Positions 8,533-63,912 are shown, counted from the whole stretch's first letter. The stretch is DNA of 63,994 nucleotides, filler included, from Candidatus Hydrogenedentota bacterium (GCA_040752395.1; 8 parts of 8 records of this genome joined end to end with filler, not necessarily neighbours in it), one strand, 5' to 3'. Program-made: numbers and translations. Notes: generated by a model not told the origin, from the letters alone.

Positions 8533-8832
8533 TTATCCTCGTAATAACGAAATAGAATCGATATCAGTTGTGCCGGTTAACCGAGCCCACAGAATAGCAA
8601 GCGATAAACCAAGCGCTGCTTCAGCAGCTGAAATGGCTATAGTAAATAATACTATGATCTCACCATCAATGTTAGATACTAATCTGCTGCCAGCAACGAA
8701 TGAAATGTTACAGGCAGTAAGCATTAACTCTATGGACAGAAGAACAATGATGATATTCCGTCTTGTAAGAATACCGATTAATCCGATACAAAATAGTAAA
8801 AGACTTGTTCCGAAGACACAAACTAGAGACAT
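8533..8832 (-). CDS. nuoK: NADH-quinone oxidoreductase subunit K
   Basis: RRNIIIVLLSIELML, AAEAALGL. Start moved to ATG 8832 (99 aa) because the upstream extension is repeat DNA. Confidence 0.93.
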   Translation of the reverse strand: MSLVCVFGTSLLLFCIGLIGILTRRNIIIVLLSIELMLTACNISFVAGSRLVSNIDGEIIVLFTIAISAAEAALGLSLAILWARLTGTTDIDSISLLRG

Positions 8833-8842
8833 AGGTTGAAGA

Positions 8843-8925
8843 CCCCTCTGAAAAGCTGTAACTTTAGTAATCTTACATAGAAGCAAGAAGCAAGATAAAG
8901 AAACTAAAACCGAAGACCGGGGCGT
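8843..8925 (-). repeat. modular repeat: partial A + C, inside the nuo operon
   Basis: + strand CCCTCTGAAAAGCTGTAACTTTAGTAAT..AGAAGCAAGAAGCAAGATAA, plus CCGAAGACCGGGGCG resembling 52139-52153. Confidence 0.75.
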
Positions 8926-8927
8926 TA

Positions 8928-9431
8928 TCAGTCAGCCTCCTTTCGGGCAATATACAAAGAACCGATTATTGCACAGAGTAAAATTACTGATGCAAGCTCA
9001 AATGGTAAAAGATAATCTTTTAAAAGTAGTCGCGCAATAAGACTGATATCTGATGCTTCTTTAAATTTGATTAAGTTACTGGCACCAGGCAAAAATAAGA
9101 GGATACCAAACTGAGACCAGAATATCGTAATAAATATAAGAACAAGAATAATAGAAAAAGTTTTCTGTAATTTGAGTGGATTCTTTTTATACACTGGTAT
9201 ATCGCCGACAAGAATAAGAGCAAACACAAAGACAACAAGCAAAGCACCAGCATAAACTATTATCTGAATTATCCCTAAATACTCTGCCTGGAGCACAAAA
9301 AAAATACCAGCAGTCCCTAAAAAAATTATTAAAAAAAATATAATACTATTAGCTGGTTTTTTAGCAATAATAGCAAATACTGATGAGATAATAGTAATAA
9401 GTGAAAGAATAAATACGATATAAGCTAACAT
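8928..9431 (-). CDS. nuoJ: NADH-quinone oxidoreductase subunit J
   Basis: AEYLGIIQIIVYAGALLV, YLLPFELASVILL. Confidence 0.93.
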   Translation of the reverse strand: MLAYIVFILSLITIISSVFAIIAKKPANSIIFFLIIFLGTAGIFFVLQAEYLGIIQIIVYAGALLVVFVFALILVGDIPVYKKNPLKLQKTFSIILVLIFITIFWSQFGILLFLPGASNLIKFKEASDISLIARLLLKDYLLPFELASVILLCAIIGSLYIARKEAD

Positions 9432-9436
9432 AACTC

Positions 9437-10453
9437 TTAAAACGCAATAACCAGGATAGCGCTAATCAAAAAATTTGCAAACGCTACTGGTAAAAGAATC
9501 TTCCAGTTGAGATTCATTAACTGGTCAAATCTTACCCGCGGTAAAGTAGCACGAACCCAGATAAAAAGTAATACAAAGATAGAGACTTTTAAACCAAACC
9601 AGAGTGTCCCAGGGATTAAATTGAATGGGAATATATTAAATGGCGGAAGCCAGCCACCTAAAAAAACTACCACAATTAAACAAGAAAATACTAATATATG
9701 TGCATACTCTCCCATGTAAAACATAGCAAACTTCATCGATGAATACTCGGTATGATAACCCGAGACAAGCTCGCTCTCTGCTTCAGGTAAATCAAATGGT
9801 ATCCTGTTGGTTTCAGCAAAACCACAGATAAGAAATATTATGAACCCGATTATCTGAGGAATGATAAGCCAGACTGATGATTTCTGATAATTAACTATCT
9901 CAACAAGACTTAATGATTTAGCAGATAAAGCTACTGTAAGTATAACAACACTTCCTGTGATTTCATAAGATATTAACTGAGAGGTAGCCCGAATGCCACC
10001 TAATAAAGAGTATTTAGAATTAGAAGACCAGCCGGAAAATACAATGCCATATACACCAAGTGATGAGACAGCAATTATAAAAAGTAAAGAAACATTTATG
10101 TTAGCTATATAACCAAGAGAGATTATAGGTTTCCCCAGGCAATCAACTAAAAAATAATCGCCCCAGGGGATTACACAGATACCAAGCAACGCGGCACAAA
10201 CCACGATTACAGGCGATAAAACGAATAAAAGTTTATCAGCTTTTAGCGGGATAACCTCTTCTTTAAAAAGAAGTTTTAAGCCATCTGCTATTGGTTGAAA
10301 TATACCAAAAGGACCGACAACTGATGGCCCGATTCTTCGCTGCATATCTCCTATGAGTTTTCGTTCAACGTACGGTATATAAGCAACCAGACCCATTACT
10401 ACAGAGAAAACAATAACAATTTTAATAAAGATTAAAATAATGGTTAAAATCAT
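9437..10453 (-). CDS. nuoH: NADH-quinone oxidoreductase subunit H
   Basis: ERKLIGDMQRRIGP, QPIADGLKLLFKE, ETNRIPFDLPEAESELVSGYHTEYS. Confidence 0.96.
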   Translation of the reverse strand: MILTIILIFIKIVIVFSVVMGLVAYIPYVERKLIGDMQRRIGPSVVGPFGIFQPIADGLKLLFKEEVIPLKADKLLFVLSPVIVVCAALLGICVIPWGDYFLVDCLGKPIISLGYIANINVSLLFIIAVSSLGVYGIVFSGWSSNSKYSLLGGIRATSQLISYEITGSVVILTVALSAKSLSLVEIVNYQKSSVWLIIPQIIGFIIFLICGFAETNRIPFDLPEAESELVSGYHTEYSSMKFAMFYMGEYAHILVFSCLIVVVFLGGWLPPFNIFPFNLIPGTLWFGLKVSIFVLLFIWVRATLPRVRFDQLMNLNWKILLPVAFANFLISAILVIAF

Positions 10454-10496
10454 TCTTTTTTATCCTGATATTTGACGCCTCTCAAATCCCGGTTTT

Positions 10497-11001: not shown

Positions 11002-11092
11002 ATATTTAACAATTGAACACCATGCAATTCCCGGCTGCACTTTTGGGACTTTGGTCTCAAGAAGATGGCAGTTTTTAAAAGGAGGTTTTTGT

Positions 11093-12343: not shown

Positions 12344-12358
12344 TTTTAAGCGGGTACC

Positions 12359-13106: not shown

Positions 13107-13270
13107 CCACAACACCAATTGTTTAATTGTTTATTAGACAGCTATTGTTTTTTGGCAATTGCTGGTGTGGTTTTCTGATACTTTTTACTTCTTCACCACA
13201 TATAACTGAGAACGTGTGAAATAATCATTATGGATACCACGTAACTCTTTTATTAGCGAGCCTGGTTACT
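13107..13270. repeat. degenerate repeat cluster (small IR element, A-like module, MITE left end)
   Basis: CCACAACACCAATTG..CAATTGCTGGTGTGG imperfect IR; CTGATACTTTTTACTTCTTCACCACATATAACTGA resembles 59582-59622; AGAACGTGTGAAATAATCAT matches 3511-3530. Confidence 0.6.
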
Positions 13271-13272
13271 TT

Positions 13273-15989: not shown

Positions 15990-18005
15990 ATGAAACTTAT
16001 TTTTGATATCTTATTACCTTTAATTGTATTGATAGCTCCATTTATTTATTATTTTGTTACCTCATCCAAAAAAAAGTCTGTATTTGAACGTGTCTCAAGA
16101 GAATTTAAAGCTAAACTCGAGGTAACTAAAACTCTTCTTCGTAAAACCTATTCTTTTCAGGCTAAATATAAAGATACTGTTTTTACTGTTGATGAATTCT
16201 CCAAAGGCGAGGGTGAGACGCAGACTCAATGCGCAAGAGTTACGTTTTATCCTGAGTTGGTTTGCCCTTTTATCTCTATTAAATATAAAGATATAAGTGA
16301 TAAAATTCTCTCCTTTAGTGGAGAAAAACTCCAGATAGAAAATATTGATAAGGATTTTCACATTACTACAGAAGATATCGATTACTGGAAAAGAAATATA
16401 AATAAAAATATTATAGCCAAACTTAAACAATTACCCAAAAACACAACCATTGAGTTATTAGAAGGGACACTGCGATTATATTCTGATAAAGCATTAAAAC
16501 ATTACGATTTATTAAAAGAGATTATTTATTATGGTTATGATTTTTTTAAAATATTAACTGAAAAACCTACTAAGAGTATGGAGACCTTACCTCAAGTAGA
16601 AGAAAAGACTCAAGACTCACGACTTGTGACTCACGACTCACAGAATATATGTCCGCGTTGTAAAAGTAAGATACCATTAAATTATAGAGTCTGTCCAGTA
16701 TGCAGATACGAATTAAAGCCCGGCTTAAAAATTAATTATAGTTTTATATTCTCATTCTTTATTATATTAACTCTAATAGCATATCTTGTTTATAATAAAT
16801 ACGAGCCCTTGATTAAAGGCTGGGTAAAAGAGAGAACCCATACCAAATCAGCTACGCCTCTTAAATTACAAAAGCATAAAGTAACTATCACGTATAATAA
16901 TAAAAATGCAAGAGAGGTATATTTTGCCTGGGAAGGGAATAAATGGAATCCGAAAAAAGATAGGATGTCAGGACCTGATAGAAACGGAAATTTTAATATC
17001 GGGTTTGAGTTATATCCCGGAAAGTACCAGTATAAATTTGTGGTTGATGGAGAATGGACGCTTGACCCAAAAGCTTCGACTATAAAAGATGGCGAGTTCA
17101 CAAACTCATTACTGATTGTTGGGACAGAGAATGAGATTAAATTAGCCTGGAACCAGAAAATTATAGAACAAAGAAAAAAGATAAATCTATTAGCAAGTAT
17201 AGGAAAAGAAATTAGTGTATTCAATAAACAAACTGATATAAAACACTTTGCAGTTTTTGGTGATTCACGTGGGAACCCTCATTTATTTAGAAAAATATTA
17301 TTGGATATCAAACAGAGGGAAGCAGAGTTTGTTGTATTCACAGGAGACCTTGTCAACAGACCTGAGTTCATCAATGAATGGGTGGAGATGTTCGAGATTA
17401 TAAAAGAGTCAAATTTGCCGTTTTTTATGGTTCCAGGGAATCATGATATAATGGATACCTCTTCTTACAATTTTTATAGAGATATCTTCTTTTTACCAGA
17501 TGCCGAGACATACTATTCATTGAAATTCAAGAATATTAAAATGTTAGTTTTATCTTCTGAGGACCCGAATTATGTTTCGACTTTTTCTGATACTCAATTT
17601 GTGTTTTTGAAAAATGAATTATCTTCTGATACCCCATTATTAAAATTTGTATGTATCCACAGACCGTTTTATCCTGATAAAGAATTGAGTCATCATTATA
17701 AAGATTCGATGAACAAAAATCCACGATTTCGTGATCAAGTGTGGGAGACATTTATAAAAAATAAAGTTAAGTCCGTTTTTAGTAGTCATGACCATTTTTT
17801 TTATGTCAATCGAGTAGCGGGTCTTTATGAATTTATTTCAGGTGGTGGTGGGGCGAAACTCTATGCGCCGCCATCTAAAGGTGGCTTTTATCATTATTTA
17901 TTAGTTAATATAAAGGAGAAGGATATCATAATAGAAGTTTATAAATTTATAGAAGAGAGAAAAAGTTTTGAAAAACATAAAACTTTTTTTATTAATCAAG
18001 AATGA
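15990..18005 (+). CDS. membrane protein with zinc ribbon, CBM48-like domain and calcineurin-like metallophosphoesterase
   Basis: CPRC..CPVC; LYPGKYQYKFVVDGEWTLDP; GDSR, GDLV, GNHD, HRP, SHDH motifs. Confidence 0.8.
   Translation: MKLIFDILLPLIVLIAPFIYYFVTSSKKKSVFERVSREFKAKLEVTKTLLRKTYSFQAKYKDTVFTVDEFSKGEGETQTQCARVTFYPELVCPFISIKYKDISDKILSFSGEKLQIENIDKDFHITTEDIDYWKRNINKNIIAKLKQLPKNTTIELLEGTLRLYSDKALKHYDLLKEIIYYGYDFFKILTEKPTKSMETLPQVEEKTQDSRLVTHDSQNICPRCKSKIPLNYRVCPVCRYELKPGLKINYSFIFSFFIILTLIAYLVYNKYEPLIKGWVKERTHTKSATPLKLQKHKVTITYNNKNAREVYFAWEGNKWNPKKDRMSGPDRNGNFNIGFELYPGKYQYKFVVDGEWTLDPKASTIKDGEFTNSLLIVGTENEIKLAWNQKIIEQRKKINLLASIGKEISVFNKQTDIKHFAVFGDSRGNPHLFRKILLDIKQREAEFVVFTGDLVNRPEFINEWVEMFEIIKESNLPFFMVPGNHDIMDTSSYNFYRDIFFLPDAETYYSLKFKNIKMLVLSSEDPNYVSTFSDTQFVFLKNELSSDTPLLKFVCIHRPFYPDKELSHHYKDSMNKNPRFRDQVWETFIKNKVKSVFSSHDHFFYVNRVAGLYEFISGGGGAKLYAPPSKGGFYHYLLVNIKEKDIIIEVYKFIEERKSFEKHKTFFINQE
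16602..16641 (+). repeat. module D heptamers inside a CDS
   Basis: GACTCAA GACTCAC GACTTGT GACTCAC GACTCAC; compare 62356-62388. Confidence 0.8.
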
Positions 18006-18874: not shown

Positions 18875-20287
18875 ATGTTTCTAAAGATTATTAAAAAAAA
18901 TTCATTTATACTTTATAGTAGTTTAATATTTATAACTATCTCTGTTTTTTTATTATTCTTACATAAAGACGCATTATATCTTTTCAAAAATGGAGATATA
19001 GCTCAATATTGTTCTTTTATTTCTCATAGGAACCTTCTTCAGCTATCAATACATATCGGATACTATATGATAGGCATTTTATTCAACTCTATATCAATAT
19101 TTCCTGTTATTAATACTATGAATATTTTAAATGTTATTTTTTCAGCAGGCTCAGTGGTAATGTGTCTCTTAATAACTCATTATTTTAATGAAAATAAAAA
19201 TAGCTTTTATGCATTATTAGGATGTTTTGCTTTATTAACCAATCATACTTTCCAGATTAATACATCTTTATCCGAGATATATATGTGTCAATCATTTCTG
19301 AATCTACTGACATTGTTCTTATTTTTAAAGGGTTATTATTTTATAAGTGGAATTATATTTTTTTTAAGTGTATTAGTCTCTACTAATTCTATTTTATATC
19401 TTCTTATGTTTTTTCTTTCTATGAAGGCGTGGGAAAAAAGAATAAAATTTAGTATTCCTCTAATAATAGGGATCTCTCTTTTCATAATTCTATTGAAAGA
19501 AGATTTTATATACGGTGGTAGAGGCGCGAGATTTTATTTATTCGATCCCGTAAATAATATTTTTACAGGCAGATATATTTTGGTCAGGTCAATAATAGGA
19601 ATGTTTACAGATATATCAATTATATGGCTTATCTTTTCAATAACAGGAATAATAACTTTTATTAAAGAGAATAAAGAGGGTTCAATTTATCCGGCAGGTT
19701 TGATAATTGGATTTGTGGCTGGTATCATTTTTAATAGCATAGTAAGCGATAATCTTTTATGGGGACAGGATGAAAAAGAGATACCTGCTCAATTATCGAG
19801 TTTTATGATTTTATCCTGTTTTGCTGGTAGAGGATACTTATTTATTAAGAGATATGGTAGATTAAGTAAAATTTTGTTAATCATCGGGATTTGTTTTACA
19901 TTATATTATATATTCCAATGGAATAACACGGTTAGAAAGGATATAAATGAGGCCAGACATCAATATAATTTAGTTTGTATAACAAAATCTTATGAGGATA
20001 GAGGTTGTATAATATTATCATTGTGGTCATTTTATAAGATTTATTCACTGGTGCATTATGGCGATTCAGAAAGATTTAAACCGCCATTTGATAATTTAGA
20101 GAGAGTATTTATACCCGGGACAACTGAAAATACTAAATTTGAATCTATGATAAGGGATAAAAAATCTTTTGTTGTTACATATGGAATTCCGTCAAAGGTA
20201 GTTCAGTATTTAACAGGATATCAATATACTTTAAAAATCATTACACCGGGTCTTGGATTATTGGAATATGATATACTGCTCCCCTGA
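18875..20287 (+). CDS. polytopic membrane protein, possibly a GT-C glycosyltransferase
   Basis: About 10 hydrophobic segments; HIGY and SEIY motifs reminiscent of GT-C/DUF2723 proteins. Confidence 0.6.
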   Translation: MFLKIIKKNSFILYSSLIFITISVFLLFLHKDALYLFKNGDIAQYCSFISHRNLLQLSIHIGYYMIGILFNSISIFPVINTMNILNVIFSAGSVVMCLLITHYFNENKNSFYALLGCFALLTNHTFQINTSLSEIYMCQSFLNLLTLFLFLKGYYFISGIIFFLSVLVSTNSILYLLMFFLSMKAWEKRIKFSIPLIIGISLFIILLKEDFIYGGRGARFYLFDPVNNIFTGRYILVRSIIGMFTDISIIWLIFSITGIITFIKENKEGSIYPAGLIIGFVAGIIFNSIVSDNLLWGQDEKEIPAQLSSFMILSCFAGRGYLFIKRYGRLSKILLIIGICFTLYYIFQWNNTVRKDINEARHQYNLVCITKSYEDRGCIILSLWSFYKIYSLVHYGDSERFKPPFDNLERVFIPGTTENTKFESMIRDKKSFVVTYGIPSKVVQYLTGYQYTLKIITPGLGLLEYDILLP

Positions 20288-20490
20288 AACGTGAGACACT
20301 TTAAAGGGGAGGAAAAGAGGCACAAAGGCACAAAGCAGGCTACAGACTACAGGCTTACTGGCTCCAGCCGGCTGTAGTCCGTAGCCCGTAGCCCGTAGCC
20401 TGTAGCCTGTCCTCATACTTCTCACTTCTTCCGTTATCTTGCTTCTTGCCTCTTGCTTCTAAACTAAGTTCTACTGCACCAATAACTGAG
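20271..20490 (+). repeat. modular repeat array F-E-B-A-K
   Basis: Each module has near-identical copies elsewhere in the window; F overlaps the upstream stop codon. Confidence 0.92.
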
Positions 20491-21202: not shown

Positions 21203-21356
21203 CAGCCGGCTGGAGCCCGAAGCCCGGAGCCTGAAGCCAACATATCATCTTTAGTTTTTCATATATTGTGTAGAACGCAACCCGCGCTCATGAGTACTCC
21301 TCTGAAAAACATTTTAACTTTAATAATAGCAGATAGAAAGTTAAAAGTTAAAAGTG
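21203..21356 (-). repeat. modular repeat array C-I-J-B (cut by contig start)
   Basis: 21203-21300 is nearly identical to 26783-26881. Confidence 0.9.
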
Positions 21357-26723: not shown

Positions 26724-26886
26724 CTCCTTCGAAAAACGCTGTAACTCTAATAATTCGGGGTACAGGCTACGGGCTACGGACTACAGCCGGCTGGAGCCCG
26801 AAGTCCGGAACCTGAAGCCAACATATCATCTTTAGTTTTTCATACTTTGTGTAGAGCGCAAGCCGCGCTCATGAGTACTCCTTTCG
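26724..26886 (-). repeat. modular repeat array I-J-B-C
   Basis: Ends in GTTTTTCGAAGGAGG directly ahead of rpsU. Confidence 0.92.
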
Positions 26887-26958
26887 AACATCACGTATAA
26901 ACCAAACTATTGAAACACACCCTGCTACAAGTGTAACAAATGTTATCACCCATTCCAT
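26869..26958 (-). CDS. 29-aa single-TM small ORF or gene remnant
   Basis: AGGGGA RBS, then MEWVITFVTLVAGCVSIVWFIRDVRKEYS; the stop lies inside module I. Confidence 0.45.
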   Translation of the reverse strand: MEWVITFVTLVAGCVSIVWFIRDVRKEYS

Positions 26959-27676: not shown

Positions 27677-28680
27677 TCACATTTTACGATCTCTTTTTTT
27701 CGCAAGGCATTATTTTTATCAGCTGTTGTTTGCAGGTCATCGATATCATAATAATACAGATTCTTTATTTTTTTACAGGTTTTATCCACGTTGCGTGGGA
27801 CTGCTATATCAATTATAAAAAGCTCTCTATAATGACGTTTTTTCATTATTATGTTTATTCTATCAAAAGTAATAATAGGGTGAGGTGCAGATGTCTGGGT
27901 TATAATAATATCTACATCTAATAAAATATCGTCGAATCTATCAAAAGAGACACTTGTTCCATGGAATCGTTTTGCAAGTTTTTCAGCATTCTCAAGTGTC
28001 CTTGAGCAGACCACAATCTTAGCGTCTCGTTTATGAAGATACATACAGCTCAGTTCACTCATCTTGCCAGCACCAATTACAAGCACTTTTTTATTTTTTA
28101 GATTTTTAAAAGTATCTTCAGCTAATCTCACTGCAATACTACTTATAGAAACAGGGTATCTGCTGATATTGGTTTCTGCCCTCACTTTTTTTCCGGTTCT
28201 AAAAGCAGCCTCAAATAGTTTATTTAACAGAGAATCAGTTGTGCCAGCAGATTTAAAATAATAGTACGCATCTTTGATCTGAGATAAAATTTGTGTCTCT
28301 CCAATGACCATTGAATCGATGCCTGAAGCGACCCTGAATAAATGTCTTGCAGCTTCTATGTCTGTATATTTATAGAAATTTTTATAAAAATCCATAGCAT
28401 CTATATTGAGTGTTTTTTTTATAATCTTTTTTAGAAATAAATAATCTTCAACATTATGAGGAAGGGATAAATATATTTCAGTACGATTACAGGTTGATAA
28501 AACTAATCCATACATCTTTTGGCAGGCGGGTTCCAGGCGTGCAGATTGGTCTTGCCATAGCGCAGCCGGGTTCAGAAATAAGTCTATTATTTTTTGTTTT
28601 AAAGTAGAATTAAAAGAAAACTTTTCTAAGATATCAATCGATGCCGTATTATGACTAATACCAAATACAGTTAACTTCAT
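27677..28680 (-). CDS. hemA: glutamyl-tRNA reductase (3' truncated by contig edge)
   Basis: LSTCNRTEIY, HLFRVASGIDSMVIGETQI, IGAGKM, DIAVPRNV. Confidence 0.95.
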
Positions 28681-28826
28681 AGAAATTATACTAATTATAG
28701 TTATTAAAAATTACAAGGTATTTTTTCAAATTCACTCTGCAACTACCATCGCGTCAGAATTTCTGGTATTTTTATTTTGACTATTTAATAGGGAATATAT
28801 TATTATGAGTAAACAGAACAGCGTCC

Positions 28827-29040
28827 GAGGCACAAAGGCACAAAGTATGAAAAAGATAGGAGTTAGGAGTTCGTAATAATAGATCTGAGCTCCGAGCTCC
28901 GAACTTTTTCGAAGGAGAAGGCTCCAGCCGGCTGTAGTCCGTAGCCTGTAGCCTGTCCTGATACCTCTCACTTCTTCCGTTATCTTGCTTCTTGCTTCTA
29001 CTTGATATTATTATAGTTACAATGTTTTTCAGAGGAGGGG
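28827..29040 (+). repeat. modular repeat array E-G-B-A-C
   Basis: Direct matches to the other arrays. Confidence 0.93.
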
Positions 29041-29055
29041 GCAATAATAAGTTAT

Positions 29056-29238
29056 ATGAATGATAGAAATATTAAAAGAGCAGGTATTTTATTTATAGTT
29101 TTATTATTCATTGCAACAATTCTGGGATATAAAAAGATGAATGTTTTATTTACATTGTTGAGTTTATTAATACTGATTAATATCGTCTTTCTTATTAGAG
29201 AATTGATAAAATACATTTATGAGGTATTTAAAAGATGA
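29056..29238 (+). CDS. small 2-TM protein coupled to trkH
   Basis: Hydrophobic 60-aa ORF with an ATGA overlap to trkH. Confidence 0.55.
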   Translation: MNDRNIKRAGILFIVLLFIATILGYKKMNVLFTLLSLLILINIVFLIRELIKYIYEVFKR

Positions 29239-30581
29239 TGAGGCGGATTCTTGGTGACCCTCCATTAATGATAATATTAAGTTTTGCTATAGCGATATGT
29301 GCTGGCACGTTAATTTTGAAACTACCATTTGCAACACATAATGGCATAAGTCTAATTGATGCATTGTTTACCATTACCTCTGCAACGTGTGTAACTGGTT
29401 TGATTGTAGTGGATACTGCTACTTATTTTACGATATGGGGTAAAATAATTATTTTGATATTTATTCAGATAGGTGGATTAGGTATACTTACATTATCAAC
29501 TATGTTTATGGGTATATTAAGTGGTAGAATCGGGATAAGTGGTCGAGGCTTTATTAGCGAGAGTTTAACACAGGATTTTGTCCTGGATTTTTATAAATTT
29601 TTGAAAAGATTAATCTATTTTGTAACAGGTATAGAAGTGTTAGGAGCGGTACTATTATTTATATTTTTTATAAGAACCGAAGATTTTATAAAAAGTATCT
29701 GGCTTTCTATATTTCATTCAATATCAGCTTTTTGCAATGCTGGTTTTTCTCTTTTCTCAGATAGTCTTGAACCTTTCCGGGGGAGCATACATTTAAATAT
29801 AGTAATTATGGTTCTCATTATATGTGGGGGGCTTGGGTTCGTTGTAATAAATGAGTTGTATGAGATCTTAAAAACAAAGAAAATCCAACTCTCATTTCAT
29901 AGCAAAGTTGTATTATCAACAACTTTATGTTTGATATTGTTTGGTGCTTGTTTTATTTTTTTTATCGAACAGAATTATTCTTTTTTTAATTTTACTTTTA
30001 AGGAAAAGATATTAAGTTCTTTTTTTCAAAGCGTGACAGCAAGAACAACTGGTTTTAATACTGTGCCTGTATATCTATTAAAAGAAGCCACAGCGCTAAT
30101 CCTTATAACATTGATGTTTATTGGTGGTTCGCCTGGTTCTACTGCGGGCGGGATAAAAACAACTTCGTTTGCAATATTTTTTTCTTTGATAATAAGCAGG
30201 ATCAGGGGAAGACCAAGACCAGAATTATTAAGACGAACTGTCTCAAAACAAACTGTTGAAAGAGTATTTACCTTAATACTTATCTCTTTGTTAATTTTAA
30301 CTCTTTGTATTTTTATCCTCCTGCTTTCAGAGATCGAGACAGTATCTCACAAGACTAATTCCAACTTTTTTTTAAGTGTTATATTTGAGGCATTCAGTGC
30401 TTTTGGTACTGTTGGTTTATCGCTCGGCATAACTCAGTACTTAACAAATCTTGGTAAATTGGTTATAATTATATTAATGTTTATAGGAAGGACAGGTCCA
30501 TTAACTTTGGCTATCTTAATGATGCAGGGTAAAGAAGAGCTTGAGTTTCAATATCCTGAGGAAGAGATAATGATTGGCTGA
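29235..30581 (+). CDS. trkH: Trk/Ktr potassium uptake membrane subunit (KtrB/TrkH)
   Basis: SATCVTGL, SAFCNAGF, RTTGFN, SAFGTVGLS selectivity-filter motifs. Confidence 0.93.
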   Translation: MMRRILGDPPLMIILSFAIAICAGTLILKLPFATHNGISLIDALFTITSATCVTGLIVVDTATYFTIWGKIIILIFIQIGGLGILTLSTMFMGILSGRIGISGRGFISESLTQDFVLDFYKFLKRLIYFVTGIEVLGAVLLFIFFIRTEDFIKSIWLSIFHSISAFCNAGFSLFSDSLEPFRGSIHLNIVIMVLIICGGLGFVVINELYEILKTKKIQLSFHSKVVLSTTLCLILFGACFIFFIEQNYSFFNFTFKEKILSSFFQSVTARTTGFNTVPVYLLKEATALILITLMFIGGSPGSTAGGIKTTSFAIFFSLIISRIRGRPRPELLRRTVSKQTVERVFTLILISLLILTLCIFILLLSEIETVSHKTNSNFFLSVIFEAFSAFGTVGLSLGITQYLTNLGKLVIIILMFIGRTGPLTLAILMMQGKEELEFQYPEEEIMIG

Positions 30582-30582
30582 T

Positions 30583-30675
30583 GTCCTGATACTTCTCACT
30601 TCTTCCGTTATCTTGCTTCTTGCCTCTTGCTTCTACTTGATATTATTAGAGTTACAATGTTTTTCAGGGGAGGAT
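30583..30675 (+). repeat. modular repeat array A-C inside the trk operon
   Basis: Near-identical to 28955-29038. Confidence 0.93.
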
Positions 30676-30682
30676 ATTTTCG

Positions 30683-31339
30683 ATGTCTGAATTTGTTGTT
30701 ATAGGGTTATCGACGTTCGGTGATGTGCTTGCACGAACACTTTATAAACTCAACCAGGAGGTACTTGTTATTGATAGAAACAAAGAAAAAATACAAGAAA
30801 TTAAAGATTCTGTTACAAAGGCGGTAGTAGCTGACGCTACAGAAAAAAAAGTGCTTGAAAAGTTTATAAAAGGTAGTGAGGCAACTATTATTGTCTCGCT
30901 TGGCGATAACATAGAAAAAAATGTTATGATAACCTATTATCTAAAAGAGATGGGGATAAAAAGGATTTATGTAAAGGCTACAAGTCTTGAACAAGGTAAA
31001 TTACTGAGAACAATAGGCGCAACTGACGTTATATATCCTGAACGAGATATGGCTGTTCGTACAGCTGAAACACTGGCGAACCCCAATCTACTCGAGAGTT
31101 TACCGCTTACCAATGAGTATGCGATAGTTGAGTTTGCCGTACCATCGCAGTTTATTGGCAAATCACTAATGGAATTAAAACTACGTAATGAATATGGTAT
31201 ATATGTTCTTGCGGTAAAAGAGGTTGTACCTGAAAAGATAATCGTTATGCCGCCACCTGATTATGTATTTAAAGATTCTGATGTACTCTTTATTCTTGGT
31301 AAATTGAGTGATATTGACAGATTAAGGCCCTCAACATAA
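30683..31339 (+). CDS. trkA: Trk/Ktr RCK regulatory subunit (KtrA/TrkA)
   Basis: VIGLSTFG Rossmann variant, IGATDVIYPERDMA, TrkA-C domain. Confidence 0.92.
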   Translation: MSEFVVIGLSTFGDVLARTLYKLNQEVLVIDRNKEKIQEIKDSVTKAVVADATEKKVLEKFIKGSEATIIVSLGDNIEKNVMITYYLKEMGIKRIYVKATSLEQGKLLRTIGATDVIYPERDMAVRTAETLANPNLLESLPLTNEYAIVEFAVPSQFIGKSLMELKLRNEYGIYVLAVKEVVPEKIIVMPPPDYVFKDSDVLFILGKLSDIDRLRPST

Positions 31340-31368
31340 GTAGGGTGCGGTTCGCGAACCGGTCCTGC
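31340..31368. repeat. GTAG-type REP-like palindrome between convergent genes
   Basis: GTAGGGTG-CGGTTCGCGAACCG-GTCCTGC, with a perfect 14-bp palindromic core. Confidence 0.6.
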
Positions 31369-31372
31369 TGGT

Positions 31373-32065
31373 TTATTCAAAAGCCCTTTTGCGTGGAAGA
31401 TTTATATCGATCCCCCATAAATCTTCATACCGTTCTTTATCGCGCTCCTCAGAAGTAAAATGACGTTTCTTCCCGGGGCTTTTTGTTTCCACCTGCCATC
31501 TATCAATAGCTTCTTCTTCTTCTTCTTTTGTCCATTCTTCTTTTTCTTCTTCCATATTTAAAGACCTATCTTCCGGGTTCTCGACCTCTACACGCCATCT
31601 ATCTATAGCCCCTCGGTCTTTATACCCTAGCCTTTTACCCATTCTCATCCTTTTCATACGTTCGCTTTTTAGTACTATAAATTTAGCTATCTGTTTTGTA
31701 GTAAGTATTTTACTTGCTTCATCATAAAGCTCATCATCTATAGACTGCATCTTATTTTTTTCATCTTTTATTTTATCGATTATATCCTGGAGTTCATTAT
31801 CAGGTGCTTCATTTTTCAGAGCTTCTTTAAGTGAGTCAGTCAGTTGTGCTAAGTCTTTTATAATCTTTTTGCGTTTGTTTTCGCTATCCTTGATTAACGA
31901 CGATATTTTCTCTTTTTGCTCATCAGTGAGTTCTAATCTTTCAGCGATTCTATCAAGCATTTTTTCTCTAAATTTAGACTCACCCTCTTTTTTGTTCTTA
32001 GAATACATAAAAGAGGGTACAAATAAAATACCTGAAACAACTAATAAAATAACAAGTTTACGCAT
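31373..32065 (-). CDS. Spy/CpxP-like periplasmic protein
   Basis: Signal peptide, LELTDEQKEKI and ILTTKQ (LTxxQ) motifs. Confidence 0.75.
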   Translation of the reverse strand: MRKLVILLVVSGILFVPSFMYSKNKKEGESKFREKMLDRIAERLELTDEQKEKISSLIKDSENKRKKIIKDLAQLTDSLKEALKNEAPDNELQDIIDKIKDEKNKMQSIDDELYDEASKILTTKQIAKFIVLKSERMKRMRMGKRLGYKDRGAIDRWRVEVENPEDRSLNMEEEKEEWTKEEEEEAIDRWQVETKSPGKKRHFTSEERDKERYEDLWGIDINLPRKRAFE

Positions 32066-32071
32066 AAACTA

Positions 32072-32350
32072 CCTCCTCTCCTCTGAAAAACATTGTAACT
32101 CTAATAATATCAAGTAGAAGCAAGATAACGGAAGAAGTGAGAGGTATCAGGACAGGCTACAGGCTACGGACTACAGCCGGTTGGAGCCAAAAGCCCGGAG
32201 CCGAAAGCCAACATCCTTTAAAAAAATCAGAATGCAAAATGCGGAAATCTGTAGTCAACAGCCAGAATTTAGAACGCAATAACCCAATAACCCAATAACC
32301 CAATAACCCAATAGTGTAGAGCGCAAAAGCGCTCATGTTGACTCCTCTGA
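32072..32350 (-). repeat. modular repeat array I-H-(unique)-B-A-C
   Basis: (AATAACCC)4 plus full B, A and C copies. Confidence 0.93.
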
Positions 32351-32457
32351 CTACAGCTCAAATATATTTCTTGAATAATTATATAATTTTTTAGTATGTT
32401 AATGCAATAAAAAATGGTATCTTTCACAATCATTTTTTTAAAGACAAATAAAATTCA

Positions 32458-32883
32458 TTAAAACAATTTAAAACATTTCATAATACTTGAAATAAAGCGT
32501 GGATAGATATTAAGAAATATTTTTATGTTTTTAAATACTATCTCATCGCGGTATTCACCGTATTCGTGAACAAGCCTGTTTCTTAATCCCGACGTTTTTG
32601 CAAGTCGTATTGCTAATTTATTAGAAATTAATCTTGAAGTTCCGAGTTTTTGGAAAACTTCATAATATGTTTCTGGGGGATTAATGTTTTTAAGCAGAAG
32701 CACCTCGCTTGATATGTCTGCACCAACTTCTACTATAAGCTGTAATAGTCTTTCCACTGCGCGCCTGGTCTTTCTTTCTTTGGAATACGTAATCCATTTT
32801 ATTTCTTTAAGTTCTTTGAGTTCGGAGATATAATCTGATAAAAGCTGTATCCTTCTTAAAAGTATAGAAGTCTCTGCATTCAT
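32458..32883 (-). CDS. hepT: HEPN (DUF86/HepT) ribonuclease toxin
   Basis: AVERLLQ, LRNRLVHEY (RX4HXY). Confidence 0.9.
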   Translation of the reverse strand: MNAETSILLRRIQLLSDYISELKELKEIKWITYSKERKTRRAVERLLQLIVEVGADISSEVLLLKNINPPETYYEVFQKLGTSRLISNKLAIRLAKTSGLRNRLVHEYGEYRDEIVFKNIKIFLNIYPRFISSIMKCFKLF

Positions 32884-32885
32884 AA

Positions 32886-33311: not shown

Positions 33312-33376
33312 TATTGTCTTAAAAAAATCCGGTCCATTTCGTTGATTACAAAAAAGACCTGAATAAATTTCTTGAA

Positions 33377-33408
33377 TAATTATATAATTTTCTGGTATGT
33401 TAATGCAA
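33377..33408 (-). promoter_or_regulatory. sigma70 promoter of mntA-hepT (second copy at about 32376-32407)
   Basis: TTGCAT-N18-TATAAT on the - strand, within a ~55-bp direct repeat. Confidence 0.6.
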
Positions 33409-33427
33409 TAAAAAAAGTGTATAAAAG

Positions 33428-33825
33428 ATAGAAGACAGAAGACAGGAGCGACGTATGAAAGAGGCATATACTGCTCCCCTGAAACGTGAGACACTTTAAA
33501 GGGGAGTACTCATGAGCGCGGGTTGCGCTCTACACTATTGGGTTCTTGGGTTCTTGGGTTATTGCGTTTTTGCGCTCTACATAAAGGATGAAAAAGATAG
33601 GAGTTAGGAGTTCGTAATAATAGATCCGAGCTCCGAACTCCGAACTTTGAAGAAGTAGTGAGGGTCACAAGACCCGTAGTAGACTGAGGGAATATCAAGA
33701 AGCAAGATAACGGAAAAAAAGACAACGAAAAAGAAAGGTTGAGGTTGAGGCTAAGGTTGAGGAACGGAAAGAAAGACAACGAAAGGCACAAAGGCACAAA
33801 GGCACAAAGTGACAGAGGCACAAAG
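33428..33825 (+). repeat. largest modular repeat array: F-I-H-I-G-inverted A half-(AGGTTG)n-E
   Basis: Matches 20271-20310, 56768-56850 and 28846-28906; five GGCACAAA-type octamers. Confidence 0.9.
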
Positions 33826-34030
33826 TTTTTTCTATCAGCTCCGTACAGAACGAGTAATACGAACAGTTAAAGAAGAAACTATCTGGATATCAGATTGGGA
33901 GACATATGAGGAAGCGGTTTTGGGTATTTCAGAAGGGATAGAGTTATATAACGGGGATCATCTTCATTTATCATTAGGGTATTTAAGTGCAGTTGAGTTT
34001 GAGCAATTAATTTATGAGAGGTGTGAAGAG
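33826..34030 (+). pseudogene. IS3-family transposase, integrase-core C-terminal remnant
   Basis: ERVIRTVKEE..YN..H.SLGYLSAVEFE resembles the E-helix and HSSLGY motif of IS3 DDE transposases; the 5' part is missing. Confidence 0.75.
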
Positions 34031-44592: not shown

Positions 44593-44847
44593 CTCCTCTG
44601 AAAAACGCTGTAACTCTAATAAAATCAAATAGAAGCAAGAAGCAAGATAACGGAAGAAGTGAGAGGTATCAGGACGGGCTACAGGCTACAGGCTACGGAC
44701 TACAGCCGGCTGGAGCCAAAAGCCCGGAGCCTGCTGAAAAGTCTCGAGTCTTGAGTCTTGAGTCTTGTTTTGACTCACGACTCTTTTCATACTTTGTGCC
44801 TCTGTGCCTCTGTGCCTCTGTGCCTTTCCTTTGAATCTTTCATCCTT
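44593..44847 (-). repeat. modular repeat array (TGAAAGAT)-E-D-B-A-C
   Basis: Collinear with 62229-62425 apart from unit copy numbers. Confidence 0.94.
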
Positions 44848-53409: not shown

Positions 53410-53675
53410 CTAACTTCTGACCCCTGATACTTCTTACTTCGTGAAATTATTAGAGTTACAACGTTTTTCGAAGGAGTCAACACGAGCGTGGGTTGCGCTC
53501 TAGACTATTGCGTTCTTGCGCTCTACACTATGGGGTTCTTGGGTTCTTGGGTTATTGCGTTATTGCGTTTTTGCGCTCTACACAACGTATGAAAAACCAG
53601 ATGTTTGTTTATCTTGCTTCTTGCTTCTTGCTTCTATTTGATATTATTAGAGTTACAACGTTTTTCAGAGGAGGT
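53410..53675 (+). repeat. modular repeat array C-I-I-H-I-A-C
   Basis: Two C copies (53446-53477, 53638-53674), three TTGCGCTCTA units and GGGTTCTT octamers. Confidence 0.92.
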
Positions 53676-53685
53676 TTACACGGCT

Positions 53686-56767: not shown

Positions 56768-57077
56768 CATGAGCGCGTTTGCGCTCTACACTATTGGGTT
56801 CTTGGGTTATTGCGTTTTTGGGTTTTTGCGCTCTACACAAAGTATGAAAAACTAAAGATGATATGAAAAGAGTCGTGAGTCGCAAGTCGTGAGTCAAAAC
56901 AGGACTCGAGACTCAAGACTCAAGACTTTTCAGCAGGCTTTGGGCTTTTGGCTCCAGCCGGCTGTAGTCTGTAGCCTGTACCCCGAATTATTAGAGTTAC
57001 AGCGTTTTTCAGAGGATAGGAGTTAGGAGTTCGTAATAATAGCTCCGAGCTCCGAACTTCGAACTTTTTCGAAGGGG
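56768..57077 (+). repeat. modular repeat array I-H-I-J-D-B-C-G
   Basis: D-B is the reverse complement of 62275-62395; G matches 28856-28915. Confidence 0.94.
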
Positions 57078-62195: not shown

Positions 62196-62228
62196 AGCCG
62201 CTTCGCTCCATTGCAAATTGCTTTATTT

Positions 62229-62490
62229 AGAAGCAAGATAACGGAAGAAGTGAGAGATATCAGGACAGGCTACAGGCTACGGACTACAGCCGGCTGGAGC
62301 CAAAAGCCAAAAGCCTGCTGAAAAGTCTTGAGTCTTGAGTCTCGAGTCCTGTTTTGACTCACGACTTGCGACTTGTGACTCACGACTCTTTTCATACTTT
62401 GTGCCTCTGTGCCTTTGTGCCTTTCTCTGTGGCTCTGTGCCTCTTTTCCTCCTCTTTAAAGTGTCTCACGTTTCAGGGGAGCAGTATATC
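62229..62490 (-). repeat. modular repeat array F-E-D-B-A
   Basis: Fills the lysA-radA spacer; every module recurs elsewhere. Confidence 0.94.
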
Positions 62491-62499
62491 ATCTACTAC

Positions 62500-63744
62500 T
62501 CACAGACTCTCACCTCGTATAATGTCTCTATAGCTTTCGCGCTTTCTTATTATTCGAAAATCTTTGCCATCAACCAGGACCTCAGCGCACCTTGGCCTTG
62601 AATTATAATTCGAAGCCATAGAGAATCCATAAGCCCCTGCAGACCTTATCGCGAGCAAATCACCTGAGAGTGGGATATTCATCTCGTAATCTTGTGCGAA
62701 AAAATCAGCTGATTCACAAACAGGACCAACAATATCAACCTTCTTTAGCTCTGTATCAGAACGTTTTCTTATATATTCGACTCTATGATAGGCTTCATAA
62801 AATGCGGGTCTAATTAAATCATTCATACCAGCATCTACAATAACGAAATTTTTACTGTAAGACTCTTTATAATATAAAACTTTTGTTACAAGAATGCCAC
62901 TATTGCCAACAATCAACCGCCCGGGCTCCATTAAAAGTTTTAGATTTAAATCCTTTATCAAGGGTAAGATAGCATTGCTTAATTCAAAAGGTGTGGGCGG
63001 GTTCTCATCTTTATAAATAATTCCGTAACCGCCTCCAATATTTAAAATCTCTATTTTAAATCCGTTGGTTCTTAAATTATTAATCAGTTTGTTTAATTTT
63101 GAGACTGCTTTTATATACGGTTCAACACTGACGAGTTGTGAGCCGATATGCGAGTGAATGCCTACGACATTAAGAGCTTTTAAGTCTTTTAAAAAAGCAA
63201 ATATCTCAAAAGCTTTATCAATCGGCAATCCAAACTTGTTTTCTTTTGTTCCTGTTATAATAAATTTATGAGTTTTAGCTTCTACATCGGGATTGATTCT
63301 TACTGCGATATTTGCGACTCTACCCATCTTTTTAGCGATCTCATTTATTCTTTCTGCTTCAGTAAACGATTCGATGTTAAAAAGCATTATGTTATTTTTT
63401 AAAGCCATGGTTATCTCGTCATCTGTTTTACCAACACCCGCATAAACAACTTTTGATGTATCTGAACAAGCCTCTATAACTCTGTAAAGCTCGCCACCAG
63501 AAACAATGTCAAAACCACTCCCTTCATCACTCAGTAATTTAATTATCGCTATATTTGAATTTACCTTAACAGAATAACATATCAGATGTTCCACCTTTTC
63601 AAACGCTGCATCAAATTTTCTGTAATGGTCAAGAATGGTATTTGCACTGTATATATAAAGAGGTGTCCCAACTTTTTTTACAATCTCCTCAACTGATACG
63701 CCCTCGCAATATAGTAAATCATCCTTGTACATAATCCGATCCAT
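62500..63744 (-). CDS. lysA: diaminopimelate decarboxylase
   Basis: YSVKVN, HIGSQ, EPGR, GPVCESAD, SNYNSRPR. Confidence 0.96.
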   Translation of the reverse strand: MDRIMYKDDLLYCEGVSVEEIVKKVGTPLYIYSANTILDHYRKFDAAFEKVEHLICYSVKVNSNIAIIKLLSDEGSGFDIVSGGELYRVIEACSDTSKVVYAGVGKTDDEITMALKNNIMLFNIESFTEAERINEIAKKMGRVANIAVRINPDVEAKTHKFIITGTKENKFGLPIDKAFEIFAFLKDLKALNVVGIHSHIGSQLVSVEPYIKAVSKLNKLINNLRTNGFKIEILNIGGGYGIIYKDENPPTPFELSNAILPLIKDLNLKLLMEPGRLIVGNSGILVTKVLYYKESYSKNFVIVDAGMNDLIRPAFYEAYHRVEYIRKRSDTELKKVDIVGPVCESADFFAQDYEMNIPLSGDLLAIRSAGAYGFSMASNYNSRPRCAEVLVDGKDFRIIRKRESYRDIIRGESL

Positions 63745-63748
63745 AAAT

Positions 63749-63912
63749 GCTCCTCTGAAAAGTCTCTAGTCTCCGGTCATTAAGTCGTCAGTCTTATCCT
63801 GACTCACGACTCTCGACTCCCGACCCCTAATATACCCCATCCCCTATGACCCATCCCCTAATATCCTCTGTGCCTCTGTGCCTTTCCTTTGAATCTTTCA
63901 ATCTTTCAACCT
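63749..63912 (-). repeat. degenerate modular repeat array (TGAAAGAT)-E-(GGGGATGG)-D-C end
   Basis: 63867-63900 matches 44808-44842; ends TTTTCAGAGGAG before lysA. Confidence 0.85.

Follow-up and report, generated by a model that had tools for sequence, protein, structure and literature searches.

Polar arrays of short tandem repeats at gene starts in a Candidatus Hydrogenedentota bacterium and their likeness to S23p cassettes

Repeat arrays between the genes of the window

The window, by which we mean the whole stretch of 63,994 nucleotides analysed here, consists of eight contigs of a Candidatus Hydrogenedentota bacterium (GCA_040752395.1) with N spacers between them. Genes were called with a simple in-house caller, which miscalled nuoK. 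Pfam matches support nuoK, S21, TrkH, TrkA, GAF, class II RNR, GGDEF and a DAP-decarboxylase type, the profile alignments beginning at the N-terminal residues that follow from the proposed starts; no Pfam match came up for the "Spy-like" gene or for ORF 29056, which is 60 aa long. Arrays of repeat modules (M1 to M7) lie between these genes, many of them ending in a box that contains GGAG (Table 1), and the window also has a copy of M8, a separate family used as internal control. Rfam 15 yielded no match at gathering score over the entire window.

Table 1. Repeat arrays and related features, in positions of the window
Position	Strand	Feature	End and neighbouring gene
3509..3606	.	M8, MITE-like	~16-bp terminal inverted repeats (CAGAACGTGTGAAA...TTTCACACGTTCTCAG)
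6656..6673	-	nuoL-nuoM spacer, 18 nt; 2x AGAGGCA (left-arm, M2-like heptamer)	
8843..8927	-	nuoJ-nuoK spacer, filled by diverged M5	GCTTTTCAGAGGGG, 10 nt to nuoK ATG 8832
20271..20490	+	M7-M2-M4-M5a	alternative tail (AAGTTCTACTGCACCAATAACTGAG), no box; next start 20537, no obvious SD
21203..21312	-	array fragment at contig end	internal box 21297-21310, then M1
26724..26883	-	M1-M4-M5b	TTTTTCGAAGGAG, 12 nt to rpsU ATG 26711
28827..29040	+	M2-M6-(internal box 28905-28917)-M4-M5a-M5b-box	box 29024-29037, 18 nt to ORF 29056
30582..30672	+	M5 alone, directly after trkH stop	box 10 nt to trkA ATG 30683
32076..32348	-	M1-M4-M5-box	box 32078-32091, 12 nt to Spy-like ATG 32065; second AGGAGG between
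33426..33842	+	M7-M1-M6-(inverted M5a arm ~33697)-M2	heads towards contig end
44591..44841	-	full array M2-M3-M4-M5a-M5b-box	box 44593-44606, 7 nt to GAF gene GTG 44585
53423..53678	+	M5b-(internal box 53463-53476)-M1-M5-box	box 53660-53673, 12 nt to nrdJ ATG 53686
56768..57077	+	M1-M3-M4-M5b-(internal box 57004-57017)-M6-box	box 57065-57077, 6 nt to GGDEF ATG 57084
62199..62489	-	M7-M2-M3-M4-M5a	no box; 35-nt unique stretch and own native-looking GGAG before ATG 62194
63749..63907	-	M2 + M3-type hairpin	ACTTTTCAGAGGAG (63750-63763), 5 nt to lysA-type ATG 63744

Box-like sequences are clearly over-represented in the window: GTTTTTCAGAGGAG with up to two mismatches has 12 matches against 0.56 expected, a number that none of 100 shuffles reaches, and TTTTTCGAAGGRG with up to one mismatch has four against 0.26. 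The first-pass annotation had placed such an end just upstream of nine gene starts, always pointing into the gene; all nine hold, on the gene strand, with 5-18 nt from GGAG to the start codon. The four internal boxes are followed by another module and no gene. A box match at 11071 (two mismatches) stands before pfk with no other module nearby, and the two boxless arrays at 62199-62489 and 20271-20490 end 35-45 nt before the start codon. At rpsU the 5' end of the array meets, at a box-like AAGGAG, a truncated copy (26869-26958, -) of a small membrane-protein gene that is found five times in the genome, and the full array before the GAF gene lies only 1 nt from the upstream stop codon. The "inverted A halves" reported earlier at 33697 and 6660 are real sequences; they belong to the CTTGCTT hairpin as its complementary arm (AGAAGCAAG...) and are no exceptions to the polarity.

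The terminal box and the polarity of the arrays

The exact box, TTTTTCAGAGGAG, has 322 copies in the 2.84-Mb assembly and is near-invariant over 13 nt. An ORF of at least 60 aa starts 3-13 nt after 223 of them, compared with 7/322 for the reverse complement and 1132/10720 for other GGAG sites; if one mismatch is allowed there are 576 copies, 374 of which have such an ORF within 40 nt. Genome-wide, the distance from the end of the element to the start codon peaks at 4-12 nt. The proposal that the terminal module supplies the ribosome-binding site is borne out in so far as the module sits at Shine-Dalgarno (SD) distance and carries the canonical SD core of this organism, AGGAG and GGAGG being the most enriched pentamers upstream of 1563 genes that have no box. 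Altogether 316 of the 2397 genes (~13%, about one in eight) carry it. The box is a discrete element rather than the tail of a graded consensus: of the 547 GGAG sites found at gene starts, 124 agree with it at all ten preceding bases, while the bulk peaks at three of ten.

Conservation ends after GGAG, the spacer and start codon being gene-specific, which means that the junction between repeat and unique DNA coincides with the SD. Five paralogous genes illustrate this, as their homology begins at AGGAG and the DNA upstream is M5 in one case, M3-type in another and unique in the remaining three. The SD may be the true target of insertion, or merely the point where selection lets the junction survive. 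If the box is a working SD, a repeat-borne sequence underlies translation initiation of ~13% of genes, including nuoK, rpsU, trkA, nrdJ and lysA. Leaders with M5 have a lower predicted median probability of an unpaired GGAG than other leaders (0.22, n=131, versus 0.42, n=350 sampled from 380), and this greater predicted masking argues against a simple translation enhancer.

The orientation of the arrays is strongly biased over the whole genome, at about 93:7 rather than the 50:50 of an unoriented element. The terminal box lies on the same strand as the downstream gene in 227 cases and on the opposite strand in 18, with a further 87:1 inside over-extended ORF calls. Modules behave likewise (M4 233:29, M3 149:12, M1 126:7, M6 41:5), and only 33 of 764 marker clusters are of mixed orientation, whereas the M8 control is unoriented (11:15). 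Polarity tracks transcription rather than replication: at sites with conflicting local GC skew and gene strand, modules side with the gene 53:17. The module order is fixed as (M7)-(M1 or M2)-M3-M4-M5-box. The arrays also fill the spacers in which they lie. In co-directional gene pairs (n=186) the median distance from stop codon to GGAG is 209 nt, of which a median of 93% is repeat, and the median number of unique nucleotides after the stop is three. Across 330 copies, the type of junction goes together with the ACA(NN)G variant, and we read this linkage as the mark of copy lineages.

Shared repeat arms and the hairpin modules

What is new here is that the hairpin arms of the arrays recur, as the same 7-8-nt repeat arms, on either side of the S23p genes of this genome (PF05635, an Avd-like four-helix bundle). 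Five PF05635 matches exceed the cut-off in the assembly, two of them truncated. The four loci with both flanks visible are all bracketed by inverted arms, and in three of them the arms are high-copy array units (202-339 copies): GAGTCGT/GACTCAA (M3) at C284, AGGCACAG and its complement (M2) at C92:3632, and AGAAGCAAG/CTTGCTT (M5a) at C347. C146 is the sole locus with private arms, and C92:6, at a contig end, has an M1-type octamer on its visible side. Every S23p gene is in the sense of its flanking genes. The arrays themselves carry no gene, only the S23p loci do, and the tails of M1 and M2 look like the first codons of an S23p gene; none of the five S23p loci is a gene-bearing counterpart of M4, M6 or the M5b-box tail.

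An S23p gene with 7-8-nt repeat arms is the architecture of 23S-rRNA intervening sequences (IVS). In Coxiella, Leptospira and others, an S23p gene lies between inverted arms with variable tandem heptamers, and the element is sense to the host transcript (Warrier et al., 2016, PMC4990558). The Coxiella IVS is described as having terminal inverted repeats, variable tandem heptamers before the S23p ORF and excision by RNase III (PMC4990558). In ORF-bearing IVS in general, RNase III acts on the long stem in the RNA, and the ORF degenerates although the RNA portion is retained (PMC4990558). The PF05635 family is described as similar to Avd (PMC10053308). An RNase III gene is present in our assembly. 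Unlike the IVS, the arrays are found in mRNA spacers and leaders: all S23p and array copies seen lie between protein-coding genes, and no location in a 23S rRNA helix was seen in this assembly, which is without rRNA (a 16S search was blank). The array copies also differ from the IVS in being almost all gene-less and stacked in a fixed order, in occupying more than 1100 loci, and in having a 3' tail that puts an SD before a host gene.

The first-pass annotation had held that the strand polarity would suit an RNA-level function or an RNA intermediate. The former gains indirect support from the link to RNase III-processed IVS and from the hairpins, which are more stable in the sense than in the antisense strand (M3 109:38, M4 202:65, M6 38:6); for the latter, no reverse transcriptase was found in the 93.8%-complete assembly. 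Folding z-scores for M6 were -2.6 and -4.6, and the M5b-box end is unstructured, without a hairpin (+0.97 and +1.36). A whole array, folded on either strand, did not outdo shuffled sequences (z -1.08 in sense, -1.23 in antisense). At the level of single pairs, where copies are not independent, wobbles show no overall sense bias (GU 182 versus AC 191); M3 runs in the opposite direction (50 versus 101, again with non-independent copies), and its sense bias is confined to the inner helices (24 versus 3, same caveat). The hairpin stems hold 14-20 imperfect pairs, a short length for an RNase III substrate.

We consider it somewhat more probable than not (roughly 0.55) that the arrays are stacked or nested, mostly gene-less derivatives of polar IVS-type S23p cassettes, co-transcribed with host genes and ending in a tail that restores the SD. 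Each complete cassette has a small gene of the S23p family (PF05635, whose four-helix bundle is akin to the Avd of diversity-generating retroelements, DGRs) between inverted arms of 7-8-nt tandem repeats. The arrays would be part of host mRNAs, and the box would be the working SD of ~13% of genes. The polarity could then have two causes: a promoterless cassette would express its gene only under sense read-through by host transcription, and the host would tolerate an insertion between stop and start only if a new SD comes in sense. In the RNA, M3, M4, M6 and the outer M2:M5a stem, all of them imperfect periodic hairpins, might be cut or bound like the IVS stems, with RNase III as a candidate, and would then be intercistronic processing or stability sites. 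The CU-rich M5 tail may partly mask its own SD, and recombination, both at the box that the arrays share and inside their repeat arms, would explain the mosaic variants. The array-S23p link connects three poorly understood subjects: the intervening sequences of rRNA, what S23p/Avd-like proteins do, and the hairpins of heptamer repeats seen in many phyla. A far broader, and to us improbable, extension is that S23p (Avd-like) repeat-arm cassettes are widespread unrecognised polar mobile elements inside host transcripts, spreading via hairpin RNA released by RNase III; their gene-less relics would be the operon punctuation of this lineage, cutting polycistronic mRNAs and giving one in eight genes its ribosome-binding site, and the same process would lie behind the intervening sequences of rRNA, the STRRs of cyanobacteria and the TAACTGA repeats.

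Alternative origins and comparison with known repeats

Alternatively, the arrays could be a domesticated regulon, in which a single RNA-binding factor particular to this lineage (for instance of the CsrA, S1 or Csp type, or S23p itself) reads host 5' leaders and intercistronic spacers at the 7-8-nt units or the box and would thus set translation of hundreds of genes jointly. Near-invariance of the box over 13 nt exceeds what an SD requires, and the predicted masking of the SD in M5 leaders fits switchable translation. Arrays are also rarer in convergent spacers (37/190) than in tandem (458/1804) or divergent ones (72/164), and the TAACTGA heptamers just 5' of starts have been interpreted in this way (MacGregor, 2015, PMC4679880). 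We nonetheless think it unlikely. The near-identical copies, sub-family linkage, deletion variants and variable unit numbers resemble recent copying, the genes served are unrelated housekeeping genes, and there are arrays without a box as well as arrays in a few convergent spacers. The TAACTGA repeats, known from marine Beggiatoaceae and from some Cyanobacteria and Bacteroidetes, do resemble ours in being mainly intergenic, "forward" 7-nt tandem units that end a few nt 5' of starts, housekeeping genes included, with no known mechanism of mobility (PMC4679880). In that account, however, they have neither SD character nor ordered multi-module arrays, whereas the arrays here have a canonical SD end and several hairpin modules.

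Another option, which we rate as quite improbable, is spread through RNA: array or cassette RNA, perhaps a piece from hairpin cleavage, would be reverse-transcribed with the help of an Avd-like S23p protein and reinserted at SD sites. Strict polarity and 5'-truncated copies are its expected outcome. The polarity is indeed strict, and a nested series with a common 3' end is present (5b-box, 5a-5b-box, 4-5a-5b-box, 3-4-5a-5b-box and 1-3-4-5a-5b-box); PF05635 is moreover the Avd family, described as the partner of reverse transcriptase in DGRs (PMC10053308). Internal deletions (1-5b-box, 4-5b-box, 2-5b-box) are, however, no rarer than 5' truncations, RVT_1 has no match in the 93.8%-complete assembly, an A-specific mutation pattern was not seen, and a poly-A or other priming feature is absent.

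The Neisseria REP2 (CREN) and Borrelia IR elements are described as interspersed, RBS-carrying sequences with internal stem-loops, lying directly 5' of unrelated genes and pointing inward, as the arrays do (PMC3184786). According to Delihas (2011, PMC3184786), REP2 supplies promoter, RBS and ATG alike, and by analogy M5 could be a portable promoter and RBS that starts both transcription and translation. We find this very improbable, despite TTGCTT, TTGATA, TATTAT and TACAAT hexamers within M5. Their spacings, counted on the consensus, are 10, 11 or 15 nt; a sigma-70 scan of 27677-34030 flags none of the three M5 copies there, yet flags a site (28777-28806) upstream of the array at 28827; and of the 223 box-bearing genes whose neighbour is known, 198 come after a co-directional gene, as in nuoJ-nuoK and trkH-trkA, where no promoter is necessary. 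Unlike REP2, the arrays leave the start codon to the gene itself. They serve at least 316 genes, most copies being intercistronic, against ~26 REP2 copies in the same account; if the box is a working SD, this scale is far above the couple of dozen Neisseria genes served by REP2.

The faintest chance we leave to SD-targeting single-strand DNA transposition of the IS200/IS605 or RAYT kind next to bottom-strand CTCC, with the target setting strand specificity: the junction lies exactly at (A)GGAG, the modules are hairpins and an M1 array is fused to coding sequence at the box-like AAGGAG, but the assembly profile search gave no Y1_Tnp and no TnpB-type match, an all-against-all protein comparison revealed no multi-copy transposase-like protein, the SD-side end (M5b-box) has no hairpin, and independent insertions would not predict a fixed module order. 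The arrays are likewise no IS200/IS605-type element, given the blank TnpA (Y1) and TnpB searches and the unstructured M5b-box end. Nor are they MITEs, as their ends (5' M1 or M2, 3' M5b-box) have no terminal inverted repeat or flanking direct repeat in the junction lists; such terminal repeats belong to the separate M8.

Among other intergenic repeats, the mosaic build of few modules in fixed order, with variable module numbers and no transposase of their own, recalls Streptococcus pneumoniae BOX and enterobacterial BIMEs, which are described as transcribed (PMC3184786). Unlike these, the arrays are anchored at start codons and supply the SD. BIME/REP elements are described as alternating in orientation and RAYT-dependent (PMC3184786), in contrast to the rarity of mixed array clusters and to the absence of RAYT here (PF01797 matched nothing in this assembly, which is 93.8% complete; the control was positive in 6 of 14 genomes). 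Mycobacterial MIRUs are co-transcribed and, like the arrays, lie between operon cistrons and abut the flanking stop and start; their small ORFs overlap these codons (PMC3184786), whereas the arrays rely on the SD. By inspection only, an in-frame ORF of the MIRU type is absent from the arrays, M5 having TGA and TAG in one frame, and the 7- and 8-nt units of variable copy number shift the reading frame. Xanthomonas and Nostoc carry intergenic tandem heptamers too, often as convergent inverted pairs, with 70-75 inverted pairs per Xanthomonas genome; these units are G-rich and quadruplex-forming, and the parts of that report which concern them describe neither start-codon anchoring nor SD supply (Rehm et al., 2015, PMC4692102).

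The arrays also have consequences for genome annotation and assembly. ORF-based start prediction is misled by them, as 87 boxes lie inside over-extended ORF calls, and the assembly breaks at arrays in 265 of its 698 contig ends.

The terminal box at gene starts

The first-pass annotation described polar arrays whose terminal box sits at gene starts, and our counts, in the window (63,994 bases; contigs C68-C74 and C140, N-spaced) as well as genome-wide, confirm this observation. Within the window, GTTTTTCAGAGGAG with up to two mismatches has 12 matches against 0.56 expected, and TTTTTCGAAGGRG with up to one mismatch has four against 0.26. The box lies upstream of all nine starts cited in that annotation, on the gene's own strand, pointing into the gene and 5-18 nt away. 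Pfam identities at these starts include nuoK, S21, TrkH/TrkA, a GAF protein, a class II ribonucleotide reductase, a GGDEF protein and a protein of the diaminopimelate-decarboxylase type; profile alignments begin at the first residues and therefore support the proposed start codons. ORF 29056 (60 aa, box 18 nt off) and the 'Spy-like' gene had no Pfam match. Four further boxes in the window are internal to arrays, with another module coming next, and two arrays have no box. Where an alternative tail replaces the box, at 20462-20490, the gene behind it (ATG 20537) shows no obvious SD. Elsewhere, a second AGGAGG between box and start codon would suit placement of the array upstream of a pre-existing SD.

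The source assembly (G000) has 349 contigs, 2,843,250 bases, 34.8% G+C and a completeness of 93.8%. Its gene set (2507 genes, 87.7% coding) comes from a dicodon caller of our own, and these calls carry a small error rate, given that nuoK was miscalled. With up to one mismatch the box is found 576 times in G000; in 374 cases an ORF of 60 aa or more begins no further than 40 nt downstream, and the spacing from box to start peaks at 4-12 nt. The start of such an ORF lies 3-13 nt behind 223 of the 322 exact copies, compared with 7/322 for the reverse complement of the box and 1132/10720 for all other GGAG sites. Box carriers make up 316 of the 2397 genes whose 5' end is complete (198/1804 behind a co-directional neighbour, 25/328 behind a divergent one and 93/265 at a contig end).

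The box might be nothing more than the native SD consensus of this organism. The SD of genes without a box is indeed canonical (upstream of 1563 genes, GGAGG is enriched 9.6-fold and AGGAG 7.7-fold); the 16S rRNA, searched for its anti-SD, is absent from the assembly. The ten bases before GGAG at gene starts match in full at 124 of 547 sites and are random-like at the rest, with a mode of 3/10. This bimodal distribution rules out a mere native consensus, whose matches would be graded, and marks the box as a discrete element.

Boxes lie on the same strand as the downstream gene in 227 cases and on the opposite strand in 18, and another 87:1 sit within over-extended ORF calls. The same polarity (same : opposite) is seen for M1 (126:7), M3 (149:12), M4 (233:29) and M6 (41:5); the ratios of M2 (105:23) and M5a (183:54) are weaker because their markers cross-hit, each module being nearly the reverse complement of the other. 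M8, a MITE-like element with terminal inverted repeats that is distinct from the array family, is unoriented to genes (11:15; 30 marker hits genome-wide). Where GC skew and gene strand disagree, module orientation goes with the gene 53:17, which suggests that polarity tracks gene strand and not skew, a count we regard as supportive only, local skew being confounded with coding strand. Across the whole genome, the local sign of GC skew agrees with gene strand in 1237 of 1463 genes (85%), which would mean either very strong replication co-orientation or a strong purine skew of the coding strand.

Array anatomy and spacer filling

A k-mer map of G000 contains 1140 repeat stretches totalling 143,594 nt (5.05% of the assembly), a lower bound, since 265 of 698 contig ends fall within such stretches. 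Module order in the marker strings is fixed as (M7)-(M1 or M2)-M3-M4-M5a-M5b-box, modules may be omitted, and only 33 of 764 marker clusters are of mixed orientation. Conservation of M5 ends exactly behind GGAG; of 234 copies, 46% have G at the first position past it and 43% have T at the second, extending the SD. The junction type, TTGATATT or CCCGAATT, is linked to the ACA(NN)G variant (330 copies), which shows copy lineages.

Repeats occupy 458/1804 tandem, 72/164 divergent and 37/190 convergent spacers, marker modules being present in only 20 of the convergent ones, several of which adjoin doubtful small ORF calls. Among 186 co-directional pairs, the median distance between stop codon and GGAG is 209 nt, this spacer being 93% repeat, and a median of 3 unique nt comes behind the stop codon; in several pairs the junction is at the stop codon itself. 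Coverage is 73% in 28 divergent cases, thereby leaving room for promoters. A promoter-like site lies upstream of the array at 28827, and a promoter scan of three M5 copies found no site. Two identities were considered and dropped: integron attC, since the genes on either side are housekeeping genes and dispersed, and small ORFs running through the arrays (MSAFALYT...), whose frame is shifted by the variable number of 8-nt units. In the window, one M3-arm fragment is translated in frame, where it forms part of a linker in a protein of 671 aa that carries AMPK1_CBM and metallophosphoesterase domains.

Repeat-related features of the window and of the source assembly (G000)
Feature	Location	Strand	Detail
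Arrays without box	window 62199-62489; 20271-20490		
Alternative array tail AAGTTCTACTGCACCAATAACTGAG	window 3640-3670; 20462-20490		after M5a, replacing M5b-box
Second AGGAGG, native-looking	window 32066-32077	-	between box and ATG at 32065
M8, MITE-like, ~95 nt	window 3509-3606; 13201-13226		terminal inverted repeats ~16 bp, CAGAACGTGTGAAA...TTTCACACGTTCTCAG
Antisense M3-arm fragment	window 16605-16641	+	within ORF 15990-18005 (…EEKTQDSRLVTHDSQN…)
Full membrane-protein copies	C298, C3, C90, C79 (loci L009-L012); C291		
Truncated sixth membrane-protein copy	window 26869-26958	-	29 codons left, cut by M1 array
S23p locus	C284		arms = M3 left and right arms
S23p locus	C92:3632		arms = M2 and its complement
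S23p locus	C347		arms = AGAAGCAAG/CTTGCTT pair; M5a = right arm
S23p locus	C92:6		M1-type octamer on visible side
S23p locus	C146		private arms
Gene running into left S23p arm	C146 (locus L017) ~1850-1920	-	repeat-translated tail (…IIVHSQQSTVHSPW)
Right S23p arm in frame with next ORF	C347 (locus L016) ~1905-1990		(CTTGCTT)n, then hydrophobic N-terminus MFYYLVSCFLLLASLVLFLPAL…

Junctions, RNA level and mobility

Five paralogous membrane-anchored proteins of ~130 aa, with tandem DVQKTSL peptide repeats in variable number and no Pfam family, show where repeat and unique DNA meet. Their alignment extends from the coding region up through AGGAG and then ends, the DNA further upstream being M5 in one, an M3-type end in one and unique in three. 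The junction of the truncated sixth copy with its M1 array is a box-like AAGGAG inside the coding sequence. In both cases the point of exchange is therefore the SD, or the box, which could be either the target of insertion or the sole junction that survives selection.

The interpretation that accompanied the first-pass observation, that the element either targets existing SD sequences or has been domesticated as a portable 5' leader, with a polarity that would suit an RNA-level function, finds partial support; the evidence at the RNA level is mixed. When unique copies were folded singly, the sense hairpin was the more stable for M3 (109:38), M4 (202:65) and M6 (38:6), and M6 folds far below shuffles (z -2.6 and -4.6). 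The inner M3 helices hold 24 wobble variants versus 3 A-C variants; as the copies share ancestry, none of the hairpin or base-pair counts given here is a probability. Against an RNA-level function, an anchored pair-level count found no overall bias (GU 182 vs AC 191), changes in unit number probably shifting the register, and a whole array, folded as one, did no better than shuffles. Rfam at the gathering score gave no match in the window. By itself, M5 is unstructured (z +0.97 and +1.36), as would befit a simple translation enhancer. This role is ruled out because the SD in M5 leaders is predicted to be less open (0.22, n=131) than that in the leaders of other genes (0.42, n=350); by these predictions M5 may partly mask its own SD.

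We found no Y1 transposase (PF01797), reverse transcriptase (PF00078) or TnpB-type protein (PF07282) in G000, no multi-copy transposase-like family in an all-against-all comparison of its proteins, and no terminal inverted repeat or target duplication at array ends. IS elements frequently fail to assemble in MAGs, so the absence of a transposase is not proven. In the genome collection, the kin of G000 are related at the 'same domain' level only and the phylum is represented by G000 alone; a search for empty sites in 30 genomes, each of them 'same domain', gave no match. The sole occurrence beyond G000 in the genome-contig scan is a 2.2-kb contig of another MAG (G031 C128, loci L005/L006), whose M1-M4-M5b-box array is almost the same as the G000 arrays and stands ahead of a gene that G000 lacks. 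Neither M5 nor M4 occurs anywhere else in this MAG, and the contig is probably a mis-binned one from a G000-like organism. The only match among metagenome contigs (JGI, locus L007) was rejected as chance, since it falls within coding sequence of 43% GC that shows no similarity to G000, and viral contigs matched neither M5 nor M4. Both function and mobility of the arrays are what we infer from these patterns.

S23p cassettes and known systems

Five PF05635 (S23p) matches in G000 exceed the cut-off, each in sense with its neighbouring genes, and inverted arms of 7-8-nt repeats bracket the S23p gene at all four loci with both flanks visible. The arms shared with the arrays have genome copy numbers of 202-339, and the tails of M1 and M2 (…AAAGTATGAAAAACTAAAGATGATATG) are similar to the beginning of the S23p gene. 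Given that array units recur as S23p arms, the hairpin modules are arms of S23p cassettes, and we read the arrays as nested or stacked cassettes, mostly gene-less. Those inverted A halves that had been listed as exceptions to polarity do exist; they are no breaches of it, simply the other arm of the hairpin.

Intervening sequences (IVSs) of rRNA have the same cassette architecture. In the published passages cited, the 23S IVS of Coxiella carries inverted repeats at its ends, its S23p ORF is preceded by tandem heptamers in variable number, and RNase III excises the element, whereas the ORF decays (PMC4990558); PF05635 is described as similar to the DGR protein Avd (PMC10053308). An RNase III gene is present in G000. 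Other repeats are comparable in part, as far as the cited excerpts describe them. Neisseria REP2 and Borrelia IR repeats bring promoter, RBS and ATG ahead of about two dozen genes, and MIRUs, polar elements between cistrons, have small ORFs that overlap (both PMC3184786). TAACTGA heptamers of Beggiatoaceae end directly ahead of start codons, without an SD (PMC4679880), and Xanthomonas has heptamer arrays as inverted pairs (PMC4692102). As described there, none of these systems unites ordered multi-module arrays, a strict anchoring at start codons that provides one gene in eight with its SD, and an origin in S23p cassettes. The nearest known classes are interspersed mosaic repeats or IVS-type cassettes. 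The literature searched contains no description of the present family or of a comparable SD-supplying array. The significance of the arrays lies in their scale and in the S23p link.

Two S23p cassettes adjoin or enter coding sequence. At L017, the gene upstream continues into the left arm of the cassette and acquires a repeat-translated tail; by eye, its C-terminal translation resembles a CobN/ChlH-type chelatase subunit. At L016, where the right arm is in frame with the next ORF, the repeat may code for a signal-peptide-like start.
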